From positions 71,114,001 to 71,178,000 of the forward strand of contig OZ024744.1 in NCBI GenBank assembly GCA_964016885.1: a DNA stretch of 64,000 nucleotides, in the 5' to 3' direction. This DNA comes from Eledone cirrhosa. Lineage: Eukaryota. This document shows positions 27,045 to 62,841 of the stretch, piece after piece (positions within the stretch are counted from its first letter, which is position 1; each line of letters opens with the position of its first letter). The translations under genes were made by a program, and so were the position numbers. A model generated the notes under the pieces. That model was not told the origin of the DNA. It did no database searches and saw only the letters and a list, made by a program, of their open reading frames with translations.

Positions 27045-28360
27045 CATCATCATCATTTTACGTCCGCTTTTCCCTGCTTGCAAGAGTGGGACGGGTCCTA
27101 TTCAGCACATCTCTCCACTTGTCACGGTCCTTCGTCATCTCCACCGTGAGCTTCAGTGATCTGAGGTCTGTTCTCACCACCTCCGCCCATGTTTTTCGTG
27201 GTCTACCTCTACCACGTCTTCCTTCAACTGGCATTTCCTGGCACTTCACCCATCAGTCATCCTCCATGCGCATCACATGTCCATACCACCGCAGTCTCCT
27301 CTCTCGTACACTACATTCTATCCCTCTCAGACAGTTTCTCTCTCAACACATCCATGCTGGGTCGTTCACGCACATTGACATTGCACATCCAACGGAGCAT
27401 ACTTGCCTCATTTCTCTCCAGCCGTCGCATATCCTCTGCAGTAGCTGCCCATGTCTCACTACCATGCAGCATCACGCTCCTCACACAGGCATCATATAAC
27501 CAGCCTTTCGTAAGCAGGGAGAAACCCTTCTTCGTCAGCAGAGGAAGCAGCTCCCTAAACTTCTTCCAACCCGTCCTTATTCTAGATACTATGGCCTCGG
27601 AACCCCTCCCCCTCCCATGCTAAACTGATCTCCTAGGTACCGGAAGCTACCCACCACTTCTATTGCACCCGCCTGCATTTGAAAAATGTGTCTATCAATG
27701 CGACTTTTACTGTACATCTACTGCATACGTATTTCTCCCTACCTGTTACTTTGCCTGCTATCCCACTACATATCTTGTGTACCCAGGATCTGCATTGTGT
27801 GCATTTTATAGAATTTATGCCAGTTCCTTTTCTGCATATCGAACATGGCCATTTCCCTGACGGAATCAGAGTTTTGTCCTCTTTTCTACTCATCAGCCCT
27901 TCTATCTTAGCTAGGTTCACTCTCAGTCCTCTTGCTTCCAACTGCTGTTTCCATAGCCAGAATTTATTCTCTAGCTCCTCTACTGATTCTGCTATAAGAA
28001 CCAGATCATCAGCATAGAGAAGTCCCCATGGACAGCCAGTCTTAAACTCCTCTGTTATGGCTTGGAGGACTATAATGAACAAGAGCAGGCTGAGGACCGA
28101 ACCTTGATGTACTCCTACTTGTATCTGGAATTCCTCACTAAACCCCATTCCTACCCTGACTTTATTGACAGCACCTCTGTACAAAGTTTGCACTGTCCTC
28201 ACGAGCCATTCCTCAACACCTAGTTTCCTGGGGGACCACCAGATGACAGATCGGGGTACCCTATCAAAGGCCTTCTCTAGGTCAACAAAGGTTAAGTATA
28301 GTGGCTTATTCTTCTCTAAGAATGTTTCTTGTAATTGTCTCACCAAGAAGAGGGCATCTG
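27045..28360 (-). mobile_element. RTE LINE 3' half (RT to (TGA)n tail)
   Basis: DLEKAFDRV, HQGSVLS, YADD, GRPRKTW. Tail ggacgtaaaatgatgatgat. Confidence 0.9.
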
Positions 28361-28926
28361 TATACATATATGTATGTACGTATACATACATACTTACATT
28401 TAAGTAAGTGCCATACTAAGAGTGAGAAATGAAATTTCGTTTTCATTTTTTTCAACTTATCGTTTTCGGTATGCCTGATCGATTTAATTCACTCAATATG
28501 CAAATTAGGCTGCTCAGCCGTTAATTTTCATAAGGAAAGTATATACTTTCGAACGTTCAACTATCTGGCAGATGGGTATACGGTGCTGATGATAGCTAAC
28601 AAGCTTGAAACTAGTACATCGTTCCTGTGTCAGTGTTGAACAAAAAGGTGACGTGGTTGCCTTAACACCGTATGGCATAAATTCAGGCTGTTCAGTTTGT
28701 TTACAAACGAACAAAGCGGCGTTCAAATAAGCGTACGCTAAACTGATGCGTGCATATATGTATGTGTACCTGTATGTATATATATATATATATATATATA
28801 TATATATATATGCTACTGTACGTCTGTATACATATATGTATGTACGTATACATACATACTTACATTTAAGTAAGTGCCATGCTAAGAGTGAGAAATGAAA
28901 TTTCGTTTTCATTTTTTTCAACTTAT
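28357..28926 (+). mobile_element. Family A HHR repeat, 1.2-mer (466-bp period, ~104-bp terminal redundancy)
   Basis: 28357-28460 is repeated at 28823-28926. Confidence 0.8.
28581..28621 (+). ncRNA. Minimal type I hammerhead ribozyme (family A)
   Basis: cggtg-CTGATGA-t agct aaca agct t-GAAAC TA GTA-catcg. Confidence 0.78.
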
Positions 28927-28954
28927 ATATATATATATATACATATATACACAT

Positions 28955-29761
28955 ATTATATATAGAGTTATAAACTCAAATAGTCTTTTACAATTAAATA
29001 GCTCAAAGAAAGGGATATTTCTGAGCCGTGTAATACAAATGAATGTATGATAGGGATAAAATTTGAAATTTGAAATTTAAATTTGTCCAGGTATCACGAC
29101 TATTGCCAATATAGGTTTGTTTTTATTGATTTATTATTTTAAATCGAGACAGGCAAACTGTATTATTTTAATTAGTATTTTTCAATCTAGCTAACTTGGT
29201 CATTTGCAATACAAACACTTATATACTTGTATTAGAGTTTATCCCTATCATATATTCATTTGTATTACACGGCTCAGAAATAACCCTTTCTTTGAGCTAT
29301 TTAATTGTAAAAGACTATTTGAGTTTATAACTCTATATATAATATTCTCGGCTCCATGCGTTGAGCTAATTTTTTAGTCCCATAAAACCGGCTGTTATTT
29401 CTAGCGGCACGAGTATAGGACGGGCTAGACGCTAGGTCACATGTGCGTTCAACAACACATTTCTTTCAGTCTTCCTAAGTATTTTGAAGTGAAACTTACC
29501 AATTTCTGGATACCTGCAGAAGAGCACAGGAATAGGAAATTTCACTTAATTGTTGCGAAACAAATTTGAAATTTAAATTTGTCCGGGTATCACGGCTATT
29601 GCCAATATAGGTTTGTTTTTATTGATTTATTATTTTAAATCGAGACAGGCAAACTGTATTATTTTAATTAGTATTTTTCAATCTAGCTAACTTGGTCATT
29701 TGCAATACAAACACTTATATACTTGTATTAGTGTTTATCACTATCATATATTCTTTTGTAT
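28955..29761 (+). mobile_element. HHR module with inverted 5' piece plus partial tandem repeat (PLE pLTR-like)
   Basis: 28955-29059 is inverted relative to 29238-29343. 29066-29266 is a direct repeat of 29562-29761 (496-bp period). Confidence 0.78.
29509..29591 (+). ncRNA. Type I hammerhead fold (family F; core U4A)
   Basis: gatacctg-CAGAAGA-gc...gc-GAAAC aaattt gaaattt aaattt GTC-cgggtatc. 8-bp stem I and 8-bp stem III. Confidence 0.62.
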
Positions 29762-29811
29762 ATACACACATATATATATATACACATATATATTGGTGCT
29801 CTGAAATAGCG

Positions 29812-60376: not shown

Positions 60377-60379
60377 AAC

Positions 60380-61566
60380 TTTGAATAACTTTGAAATGTT
60401 TTGGCCAGTATTGGCCCAGGCCATGTCTAAATTAATAGCACCACCAGGCGAAGTCTTTCAATTCAGGATTTGGGCACCATGGCCCATTCGAGAAGAGAAT
60501 TACTGTTTGCGGAGACATATCCGGGTGTGGGTGGTTTGTCCGGGATTACTTGGAGGAATTTGTCCAAAGACTTCTTGTATTTTGTGTGGTCAGTTTCTGT
60601 TTTGACGTGTCCTGGTGTGATGTTGAAGAGAGCAGGGCCGATTGAGGTGAAATAATTGTGCCGTATTGTTGTTATGAGTTGCGATTTAGATTTTTGAATG
60701 GGACGGATAGCACGGGGCCCAAGCCTTGGGTGTATCTTGAAGGCGATGCCAACATCATTTGGGCAGTGATGATGGAACATTTTCCACATCATGCAGATAA
60801 TATAACGCTCACGGCGACGTTGGAGTGAGTAAAGTTTCAGGTTTTCTAATCGACCCCAGTAGTCAAGGTCTGACATGCCATCTATCTTTTTCGTGATTGC
60901 CCTTTGAGGAGCTTCAAGTTTCATGATACTTTGTTTCGTGTGGGGAGACCACAGTGGACAACAGTATTCAAGGTGTGGTCGGGCAAAAGTAGAGAAGAGA
61001 AGGATAATGGTGCGGGAATCTCTCGACTGGAAGGTTCTGAGGATCCAGGAACACATTCTGCGGGCCATGTCAACTTTGCTGCTTATATGCGTGGTCCAGC
61101 TTATGTTGCTGTCCACGGTTACTCCCAAGTCTCTGATGTTGTTAGATGCCACGAGAGTTTCCCCGGAGGGAAGGGAGTACGGGAGTTTCAGAGCATCCTC
61201 TTTTCCAAAGTGGATCAGTTCGAATTTGTCTTCGTTCAGTAACATGTTGTTCTTTTCCGCCCATTGGGTAACAGCCAGTAGGTCTGACTGAAGGCTTATC
61301 CGGTCATCCACGCCATTGATGACCTTTTGGAGCTTGGAATCATCAGCGAAAATTTTAATGTTGCTGTGTTTGATGATGTCAGTGATGTCATTAATATAGA
61401 TGATGAAGAGAAGTGGGCCCAACACAGTGCCTTGTGGGACCCCACTACTGACTTTGGCTGGGCTGGATTTGACTCCCTCAACTACAACATGTTGGGTTCT
61501 GTTTGACAGGAAGCTCTTGATCCACTGCAGCAGCTTTCCAGTGACACCAATATTGGACAGCTTTCT
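60380..61566 (-). pseudogene. CR1/L2/Jockey-group LINE RT 3' part
   Basis: [53 protein letters not shown]. Confidence 0.9.
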
Positions 61567-62146
61567 ATATATATATATATATACATATACATATATATAT
61601 ATATATATATATATATATATATATATATATATATATATACATATACATATATATACATATGTATGTATATATACATATATATATATATATACATATATAT
61701 ATATACATACATATATATACATATATATACATACATATATATATATACATACATATATATACATATATATATACATACATATATATATATACATACATAT
61801 ATATAGATACATACATATATATACATACATATATATACATACATATATATACATACATATATATACATATATATATATACATATATATATATATACACAT
61901 ATATATATATATAATATATATATATATATATATATATATATATATATATATATATATATATATACATATATATATACATATATATACATATATATATACA
62001 TATATATATACATATATATATATACATACATATATATACATATATATATATATATATATATATATACACATATATATATATACATATATATATATATATA
62101 TACATATATATATATATATATATACATATACATATATATATATATA

Positions 62147-62841
62147 TGATGAAGGACTTACTTTTTCATATGTAACCCATTTGCAGCGCCGCAGCTCCAT
62201 TATTATCATATTTACACATATATTTTTTCCTCCGCTGCCACCCGTCTGTTTCGTTCTTTGTATCTTTACCCTTTCTAGCAGTCTCTCTCTCTCTGTTAGC
62301 CTCTTCCTCACCTTTCACTCACTCACTCTCTGTCACTACCTCTCCTCCTCCTCTTTCTTCCCGTTTCACCTGTCCGAATTCTTTTCTCGCGCGCTCTTGG
62401 CCAAGCCGGTATGAATTTTTTTTCTCTCTCTCTCTCTCTCGTCTGCGACTTCACAGAACTTATGTTTACCGAATTCGCAGACCAGACCCCTTCTTCTTCC
62501 CCCCGTTAGACCTGTGCGAAATTCCTTCCTTGCTCACATTTCAACCAGGTTTGATGGTCTTTATTCTCTCGTTCACGATTTCACCGAGTTTATATTCATA
62601 GAAATCTGGGACTTGTCTCTTTCTTCTCACTTTCTGTTGTTTAAACCATTTTGTTTGTTCACCCTAGCGTCCCCTTTATTTACGCGTCCCAACGACTTTT
62701 TTTAGCTGTTGTTCGCACCAACCTGAGGTATATGGCCTTTAAAGCGATGAAATGCCTAAGACGGTTGGAAGGCCACTGATGAAGGACTTACTTTTTCATA
62801 TGTAACCCATTTGCAACGCCGCAGCTCCATTATTATCATAT
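62147..62841 (+). mobile_element. Non-coding 1.1-mer repeat (630-bp period, ~65-bp terminal redundancy) between (TA)n tracts
   Basis: 62147-62211 is repeated at 62777-62841. Related to 23400-24590. Confidence 0.75.

Follow-up and report, generated by a model that had tools for sequence, protein, structure and literature searches.

Four short non-coding element families of the Penelope/retrozyme kind in a (TA)n-rich region of the Eledone cirrhosa genome

The window analysed here is a 64-kb stretch of Eledone cirrhosa DNA (contig OZ024744.1), in which four short modules, designated A to D, lie among Penelope-like elements (PLEs) and numerous hammerheads (HHRs) nested in (TA)n repeats. Motif scans recognize 12 intact type I HHR cores in the window, versus one type I match in ten shuffles, and many inverted structures are evident by self-BLAST. 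The self-BLAST was run on the microsatellite-masked window; the unmasked comparison and a whole-window Rfam scan were swamped by (TA)n. HHRs were assigned by motif scans because Rfam searches of sub-regions returned nothing beyond a weak sub-threshold HH9 match in A (18.6 bits, E 0.44); the Rfam search of C gave no match. The window also contains two copies of a PLE encoding a reverse transcriptase (RT) and a GIY-YIG endonuclease, which are of the kind that A–D would need as an autonomous partner; no sequence similarity of A–D to the PLEs was found within the window. Coordinates are shown in Table 1.

Table 1. Modules, family copies, hammerheads and associated features in the 64-kb window.
Feature	Position	Strand	Description
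Module A	28357..28926	+	1.22 units of a 466-bp unit; terminates 3' in (TA)n; RTE fragment joined at left end
A hammerhead, intact minimal type I	28580..28622	+	core 28586; 6-bp stem I, palindromic 2-bp stem III; predicted cut after 28616
A0, second A-family copy >1 unit	1..1205	+	unit junction as in A; intact HHR core at 257; foreign segment ~433-1123; left end beyond window
A3, 5'-truncated A-family copy	45383..45740	-	3' end as in A; HHR core at 45689
B inverted arm	28966..29065	-	copy of ~29238-29345; own 3' end ~80 nt further along unit than that of main copy, at TA patch
Module B	29066..29761	+	1.40 units of a 496-bp unit; carries predicted HHR cut sites at 29087 and 29583
B type I hammerhead	29509..29591	+	core 29517; long stem III; one core substitution (position 4); MFE fold gives three-way junction
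Module C	37200..37940	-	1.17 units of a 631-bp unit; TA-flanked; strand assigned from its hammerhead
C degenerate type I hammerhead	37457..37538	-	core 37530; U16.1>C, weak stem II; predicted cut at 37463
C open frame, 149 codons	37299..37748	+	antisense to C hammerhead; no homolog found
Module D	62147..62841	+	1.10 units of a 630-bp unit; TA-flanked both sides; internal diverged ~150-bp duplication, missing from other copies
D hammerhead-like motif, S-G-C block order	62727..62788	+	stem I (covarying) and stem III paired; no proper stem II
D2a + D2b, pair of head-to-tail D-family segments	23808..24590	-	91.5% alike; period 319; no continuation round one unit
D3, 5'-truncated D-family copy	23286..23708	-	3' end about as in D
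Two head-to-head copies of 5'-truncated RT + GIY-YIG PLE	46699..51364		99.5% alike; in (TA)n; each with minimal HHR ~140 nt before 3' end

Each module carries a terminal direct redundancy, as an earlier note on this DNA had reported with periods of 466, 496, 631 and 630 bp, and all four are real. The matching segments are 28357-28460 and 28823-28926 in A (104 bp, 1 mismatch), 29066-29265 and 29562-29761 in B (200 bp, 5 mismatches), 37200-37309 and 37831-37940 in C (110 bp, 2 mismatches), and 62147-62211 and 62777-62841 in D (65 bp, 1 mismatch), giving nine mismatches in 479 bp and BLAST E-values of 1e-15 to 1e-89 in the masked window. The ends of a module differ from each other by 1.9%, versus 8–18% between copies of a family. 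The modules are mutually unrelated, as was claimed (best local scores 17–30; no cross-match at E<0.9). All contain 1.1–1.4 units with at most one complete HHR; none of them is a tandem array in which two or more successive units each have an HHR, and neither complete dimers nor longer arrays of any module occur in the window. The longest ATG frames are 54 (A), 42 (B) and 32 (D) amino acids, and C has one of 147 amino acids, for which there is no Pfam family, no Atlas match and no homolog among eight candidates; one 17-residue match to a repeat protein was judged to be chance.

Modules A and A0 are 86% alike and have one common unit junction. The segment at 1-1205 had been listed as a probable further family with an insertion; it is a copy of family A and not a fifth family, and the insertion is borne out by the foreign segment. 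The left end of A is a junction with an RTE fragment across about 4–5 shared bases, so its 1.22 units do not mark a natural end. The A hammerhead core is kept in all three copies with changes confined to free positions, and is thus under selection for something. Pattern scans for this hammerhead in viral contigs and metagenome contigs gave no matches.

An HHR core had been placed once in the unique part of three modules. This description fits A, whose core is intact, but the cores of C (U16.1>C, with a poor stem II) and B (position 4) are substituted, and in B stem III, the cut site and the 3' strand of stem I fall inside the redundant part, so that the predicted cut site is present twice. There is no ordinary HHR in D, whose CUGAUGA sits in the redundant part with no GAAA following. 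Modules B and C are each represented by one locus in the window. The inverted arm of B was overlooked earlier; over 28966-29060 it has 2 mismatches in 95 positions by masked self-BLAST, and such an arm is absent from C and from D. Near its end, the right copy of the B repeat has two positions at which it matches neither the left copy nor the inverted arm.

Copy ends were taken from the window together with one read-mapping analysis of D. The 3' ends of all four modules adjoin (TA)n-type repeats, in which target-site duplications (TSDs) are not discernible. They cluster at TA-like patches in two of three A copies and three of four D segments: those of A and A3 coincide, with A0 ending ~55 nt earlier, and those of D, D2a and D3 lie within a few nucleotides of each other, with D2b ending at another TA patch. 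All nine mapped 3' ends fall on a TA-like word common to element and flank. The 5' repeat is missing from D2a, D2b, D3 and A3. The earlier proposal that copies are circularly permuted is not upheld by the window copies and the D read depth: the 3' ends fall in clusters and the points of 5' truncation vary, as in ordinary target-primed reverse transcription.

Read depth was determined for module D only, in 4 of 23 listed public runs, where D is very high-copy. Depth just past the unit junction is 11–20% of the 3'-terminal depth in all four runs and coverage declines toward the 5' end of the unit, these ratios being rough values from summed contig depth that are affected by divergence. The molecule ends listed for D come from a RAD library only and are read as restriction sites. 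Contigs bridge the D unit junction in runs X1, X5 and X4, the last of which carries another organism label. Since one junction recurs in A and A0, and for D in three runs under two organism labels, we infer that it was inherited through RNA and not made anew.

These observations bear on whether A–D might be miniature LTR elements of the TRIM type, or whether local DNA duplications (large TSDs) might flank unrelated inserts. The D repeat begins with TG and can be read as ending in CA, contrary to the earlier statement that TG..CA ends, primer-binding sites (PBS) and TSDs are all absent, and the end-to-end identity of the modules is LTR-like. The absence of a PBS does stand, with no PBS-like or PPT-like sequence adjoining any A–D repeat by eye, and TSDs cannot be judged in (TA)n. 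Four copies are without the 5' repeat, the internal depth of D toward its 5' end is a small fraction of that at its 3' part, and the junctions recur in further copies. We regard this explanation as very improbable overall, and it is already contradicted for A and D; the very high copy number, the fall in coverage toward the 5' end and the junction-bridging contigs argue that D is neither a TRIM nor a one-off duplication. The earlier view of A–D as retrozyme- or PLE-type retrocopies that exceed one unit, rather than LTR elements, holds.

The redundancy could also be born at insertion from two molecules, by a template jump or by a second 5'-truncated copy landing in adjacent (TA)n. D2a and D2b are such a case, in that their junction is not continuous with the unit; the D junction is itself a short TA-like relic, and the two sites that set apart the right copy of B point the same way. 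We consider this unlikely as a general account, because the two ends of a module resemble each other far more closely than family copies do, and single junctions recur in A and A0 and among the D contigs of different runs and organism labels. A two-molecule event may nevertheless account for the birth of the ancestral unit junction.

Our preferred interpretation, held with somewhat more confidence than doubt, is that A–D are non-autonomous PLE/retrozyme-type elements and that the modules are target-primed copies of a longer-than-unit, probably uncleaved RNA. The four non-coding families would use the RT/GIY-YIG machinery of PLEs, as pLTR-only or non-LTR-retrozyme-type elements. The endonuclease would nick (TA)n, and the nicked strand would pair with a UA-rich stretch within the RNA, letting RT begin at one or two preferred internal sites; the end positions are seen directly and the pairing is the mechanism they suggest. 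The RNA would run seamlessly across the unit junction, as evident for D, and for A from its second copy. RT would mostly drop off before completing one unit, with a minority of copies overshooting to 1.1–1.4 units. Priming of the second strand as well could give the inverted arm of B, which starts ~80 nt further on and resembles the 'tail' signature of PLEs. In vitro, a purified PLE primes both strands, begins RT at two fixed internal sites and works on RNA that has not been cleaved (PMC11167929). Among the PLE traits described in PMC8557442 are partial tandems, inverted 5' copies, tails, (TA)n targets and non-autonomous pLTR forms.

As template, a read-through transcript that stays uncleaved and comes from a tandem or partially tandem source locus is the likeliest; hammerhead cleavage would then be unnecessary. 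Against this reading, the window contains neither a dimer nor a longer array of any module, the hammerhead core of A is under selection, and A–D resemble none of the PLEs in the window. Modules B and C each have a core defect, though each copy has drifted only ~1% since insertion, and by a hand calculation the chance that both defects arose after insertion is ~2%, so that the HHR was probably already damaged in at least one template. Single minimal HHRs like that of A did not cleave as monomers in vitro (PMC4209133).

The main rival has the same elements and enzyme with a different template, a hammerhead-processed and ligated circular monomer on which RT starts at a preferred UA-rich patch, goes round once and overshoots; it is the model of the earlier note with a fixed instead of a random start. 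We treat it as a serious possibility of lower probability. The near-identity of module ends relative to family copies follows at once from a circle, whereas a tandem source must be young or homogenised. The unit junction is seamless and common to copies, the B copy crosses its predicted cut site twice, exactly one unit apart, and the non-TA part of A is strongly structured (fold z -5.6, with seven of nine control stretches between -0.9 and +0.9; a circular-fold z of -7.5, or -13.6 with 10 shuffles, was discarded as inflated by self-pairing TA repeats). Retrozymes of coral, mussel and axolotl form circles (PMC7229834). However, A alone of the four modules has an intact HHR, which is of the minimal type that requires a dimer and occurs once per module; circular-fold z values for B, C and D are modest (-3.0, -3.3 and -2.3), with two controls as low or lower (gypsy -3.0, PLE 3' UTR -6.3); and the units of 466–631 nt exceed the 170–400 nt circles of PMC7229834. 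HHR cleavage is not needed by the PLE tested in vitro (PMC11167929), and one of nine predicted Xenopus retrozyme dimers was cleaved (10.64898/2026.07.22.740005). An uncleaved tandem transcript would give the same DNA product as a circle.

The circle-overshoot model is not new, having been published in the discussion of PMC4209133 (2014), in PMC7229834 and in PMC7761336; the 2014 paper proposed circular templates for PLE partial tandems without direct proof. Families A and D are short and high-copy, their junction and RT start sites are defined, and they lend themselves to testing more readily than PLEs of 3 kb do.

As sequence alone, A–D are ordinary for a PLE-rich invertebrate genome and belong to an already known Penelope/retrozyme kind of short non-coding mobile element. 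Searches of the freely accessible literature on octopus hammerheads, PLEs and retrozymes found no publication on these families, which may already be entered in Repbase/Dfam. Metazoan non-LTR retrozymes (PMC7229834; 10.64898/2026.07.22.740005) are likewise non-coding, below 50% GC and without LTR, PBS or PPT; they have units of a few hundred bp, occur alongside PLEs, and commonly leave dispersed monomer derivatives. They carry type I HHRs, of which A has an intact form, B and C have one with a core substitution each, and D has none of the ordinary kind. Their arrays have an HHR per unit, whereas A–D are 1.1–1.4-mers with one, often damaged, HHR, and the A–D units are longer than retrozyme circles seen by northern blot. 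Endonuclease-bearing PLEs and their non-autonomous pLTR forms (PMC8557442; PMC11167929; PMC4209133) share the partial tandem, (TA)n targeting, 5' truncation, fixed internal 3' start sites with a second ('tail') site, a minimal HHR upstream of the 3' end and, for B, the inverted 5' copy. Partial tandems with fixed 3' ends and variable 5' truncation are found in families A and D, and an alternative 3' end in the B inverted arm, with its second start site, and in A0, which ends short of A and A3. Unlike PLEs, A–D show no trace of RT or endonuclease coding sequence, and they are not linked by sequence to the PLEs of the window. TRIMs and plant LTR retrozymes are also short, with near-identical direct terminal repeats, but A–D lack a PBS, a PPT and a fixed 5' end, and their HHRs are type I and mostly outside the repeats.

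The hammerhead-like motif of D has an 8-bp stem I and a 5-bp stem III, and 30 shuffles gave no SGC match. Three of seven stem I pairs are changed on both sides across three window copies, and 62736 C>T accompanies 62772 G>A as majority letters in runs X1, X5 and X21; in X4 the second change is a minority. Stem II has one pair beside the core, 48% of cells paired and two positions that never pair. PLE hammerhead variants were reportedly described by Lunse et al. in 2017 and may bear on D. The motif resembles type-SGC (non-circularly permuted) hammerheads such as HRIMA-1 (Eckert et al. 2023, PMC10085705) in block order, in paired stems I and III and in the short spacer that separates the stem I strand from GAAA; the published SGC ribozymes differ in coming from metatranscriptomes and in needing all stems, whereas stem II of D has two constant mismatches. 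A pattern scan for the D motif in metagenome contigs found no match, and the titles and abstract openings of papers from 2023 onward on non-circularly permuted hammerheads and retrotransposons revealed no animal genomic case. The end of D2b exactly at the predicted cut site, 62732, was dropped as proof of cleavage because this site is a TA word like every other mapped 3' end. It is decidedly improbable that D carries a working SGC-order hammerhead with a non-canonical stem II, cutting after 62732 to give monomers that are ligated to circles around which a PLE RT rolls; if true, this would place a pseudoknotted hammerhead in an animal genome and provide a direct example of retrotransposition from a circular template. 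The covarying pseudoknot around CUGAUGA is the one feature that a ribozyme specialist might want to assay.

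Four non-coding modules in the window, here called A to D, carry direct terminal redundancies, all four present where the earlier note had placed them (see table; the unit is the period of the redundancy). Mismatches affect 9 of the 479 bp of the four redundancies together, and mutual comparison of the modules found no sequence relation among them. The note had also proposed a further family, with an insertion, at 1-1205; there is an insertion, of a foreign segment in a TA stretch, but the element itself is a second copy of A (A0). The left end of A is fused to an RTE fragment across a few common bases, so its length is not natural, and B has an inverted arm at 28966-29060 that had been overlooked.

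Coordinates and characteristics of the modules and other elements in the window
Feature	Position	Characteristics
Module A	28357-28926	104 bp redundant, period 466 bp, 1.22 units
Module B	29066-29761	200 bp redundant, period 496 bp, 1.40 units
Module C (minus strand)	37200-37940	110 bp redundant, period 631 bp, 1.17 units
Module D	62147-62841	65 bp redundant, period 630 bp, 1.10 units
A-family copy A3	45383-45740	
D-family segments D2a + D2b	23808-24590	91.5% alike, period 319
D-family segment D3	23286-23708	
RT + GIY-YIG PLE pair, two head-to-head 5'-truncated copies	46699-51364	4.67-kb near-perfect palindrome, 99.5%
Second PLE family	30789-31717 + 34122-36809	HHR at 31094
345-bp palindrome (97%)	26208-26552	two HHRs, opposite strands
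TA-flanked element, long inverted ends (69%)	29836-30209	one HHR, 4-bp stem III, core 29965, minus
Inverted pair (98.6%) around long (TA)n	62911-63768	without Pfam match
Related non-coding elements, long inverted terminal arms	1845-2848 + 21738-22939	abundant SINE-like piece inside
Older diverged direct repeats	51847-52270 + 36268-36566	periods 199 and 148 bp, 72-80%

(TA)n microsatellite makes up ~10.3 kb of the window (61 masked stretches, ~16%) and acts as a landing pad for elements; the DNA between consists of pieces of many mobile elements. Pfam matches include RT-bearing frames, a Pif1 helicase and one frame that matches RT and GIY-YIG weakly; fragments that we take to be RTE, R4-like, gypsy, Tc1 and Helitron were labelled from motifs in their translations. 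Runs of (TA)n type terminate nearly all of the unrelated element classes. Motif scans recover 12 intact type I hammerhead ribozyme (HHR) cores, against one type I match in 10 shuffles.

It had been suggested that RT went once round a circular RNA and overshot, giving permuted copies. Circular permutation is not supported where it is testable, in A and D (B and C are known from single loci): 3' ends cluster and 5' ends are different in each copy compared. A and A3 share a 3' end, with that of A0 ~55 nt before it; the ends of D, D2a and D3 lie only a few bases apart, and D2b stops ~110 nt earlier; the main copy of B and its inverted arm end ~80 nt apart. All nine mapped 3' ends have a TA-like word matching the flank. 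Four public sequencing runs were compared with D (2346, 163 and 60 contigs and 4438 reads matching). Depth peaks near the 3' end and declines toward the 5' end of the unit, and immediately beyond the junction with the next unit is 12, 20, 11 and 18% of 3'-terminal depth, rough figures summed over contigs. This junction is bridged by contigs of runs X1, X5 and X4, of which X4 carries another organism label. Other D copies lack the internal duplication, as joints that jump over 149-184 bases show, and hence the usual D unit is nearer 480 nt. Both a TRIM and a one-off duplication are opposed for A and D by the end, depth and junction pattern, which is that of target-primed RT: copying starts at a preferred place, breaks off at random and in a minority of cases continues beyond one unit.

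The HHR of A is minimal, with a palindromic 2-bp stem III, and is kept in all three copies, substitutions being confined to free positions. That of B is substituted at core position 4 and is predicted to fold, with a long stem III, into a three-way junction; the redundancy starts within stem III, and B therefore covers the predicted cut site twice, which a linear HHR-cut monomer is unable to yield as template. In the HHR of C (minus strand), stem II is weak and the core has U16.1>C. The cores of B and C are both damaged, although each copy has drifted only ~1% since insertion, and a hand estimate puts the chance that both defects post-date insertion at ~2%.

The modules require a template longer than one unit that runs on through the junction and has an unbroken HHR cut site, and two fit: an uncleaved tandem or partial-tandem transcript, or a re-ligated circle. 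On balance we favour the first, in which RT would copy RNA read through a tandem or partial-tandem locus without cleavage, because a purified Penelope-like element (PLE) works with uncleaved RNA, primes on both strands at AT-rich DNA and begins RT at two internal positions (PMC11167929), because single minimal HHRs did not cleave in vitro (PMC4209133), and because the B and C cores are damaged. Against it count the lack of dimers of A-D within the window and of any sequence link found between A-D and its PLEs. A circular template, already a published possibility, is less likely; it would accord with ends that differ by 1.9% within modules versus 8-18% between family copies, with the strong structure of A (z -5.6 excluding the TA part) and with the circles that animal retrozymes do make (PMC7229834). 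D2a and D2b show that the D family can stack two different molecules, and such stacking, a third route to redundancy, is improbable for the modules.

In D, CUGAUGA lies inside the redundant part with no GAAA following. A hammerhead-like motif (62727-62788) has its blocks in the order cleavage site, GAAA, CUGAUGA (S-G-C), which is that of non-circularly permuted hammerheads (PMC10085705). Both stem I (8 bp) and stem III (5 bp) form; no SGC match occurred in 30 shuffles. Three of the seven stem I pairs have changes on both sides among three window copies, which are few and related sequences; the changes 62736 C>T and 62772 G>A each predominate in the public runs X1, X5 and X21, the second being a minority in X4. 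No proper stem II is present (48% of it pairs, and two mismatches are constant), and the D3 core is decayed; the motif for these reasons falls outside the SGC hammerheads. The end of D2b at the predicted cut was considered as a sign of cleavage, but the same site is also a TA word. An active permuted ribozyme with a circle in D is very improbable. The pseudoknot-like motif sits in a very high-copy family.

A-D work like PLEs and animal retrozymes. PLEs are described with (TA)n targets, tails, partial tandems, inverted 5' copies and non-autonomous elements that form pLTRs (PMC8557442), and a 2026 preprint makes the case that the retrozymes of animals derive from PLEs and are non-autonomous (units of 51-972 bp, many monomers; 10.64898/2026.07.22.740005). 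Strictly defined retrozymes have two HHR-bearing units, whereas A-D do not; for this reason, and because circles are only putative, we file A-D from their sequences as probable non-autonomous PLE-type elements and not as retrozymes, A being the best retrozyme candidate. Literature searches on octopus found no paper on these families. Their assignment is ordinary; the feature itself is real.

Antisense to its HHR, C has a 149-codon open frame (37299-37748), longer than any in 1000 shuffles (140 was reached in 1 of 5000 local shuffles), with no homologs found in Pfam and protein comparisons. Its ATG falls where the terminal redundancy ends.

Both frames of the head-to-head PLE pair are open for 634 codons, and each copy has a minimal HHR ~140 nt before its 3' end; the closest match of the 634-aa frame is an Octopus vulgaris protein (69%), the next being ~50%, which makes an octopod the likely host. 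The palindrome is either a young insertion of both strands or a fold-back in the assembly. In the second PLE family, ORF fragments downstream of the HHR match a broken PLE at 34375-36050 that contains a 60-bp direct repeat and nested inverted pieces. HHRs similar to those of the 345-bp palindrome occur at 3399 (+) and 51744 (-). The fragment in the inverted pair around (TA)n looks, from its motif, like an R4-type endonuclease end. Motif scans found no HHR in the two elements with long inverted terminal arms. The older direct repeats adjoin HHR- or PLE-type ends.
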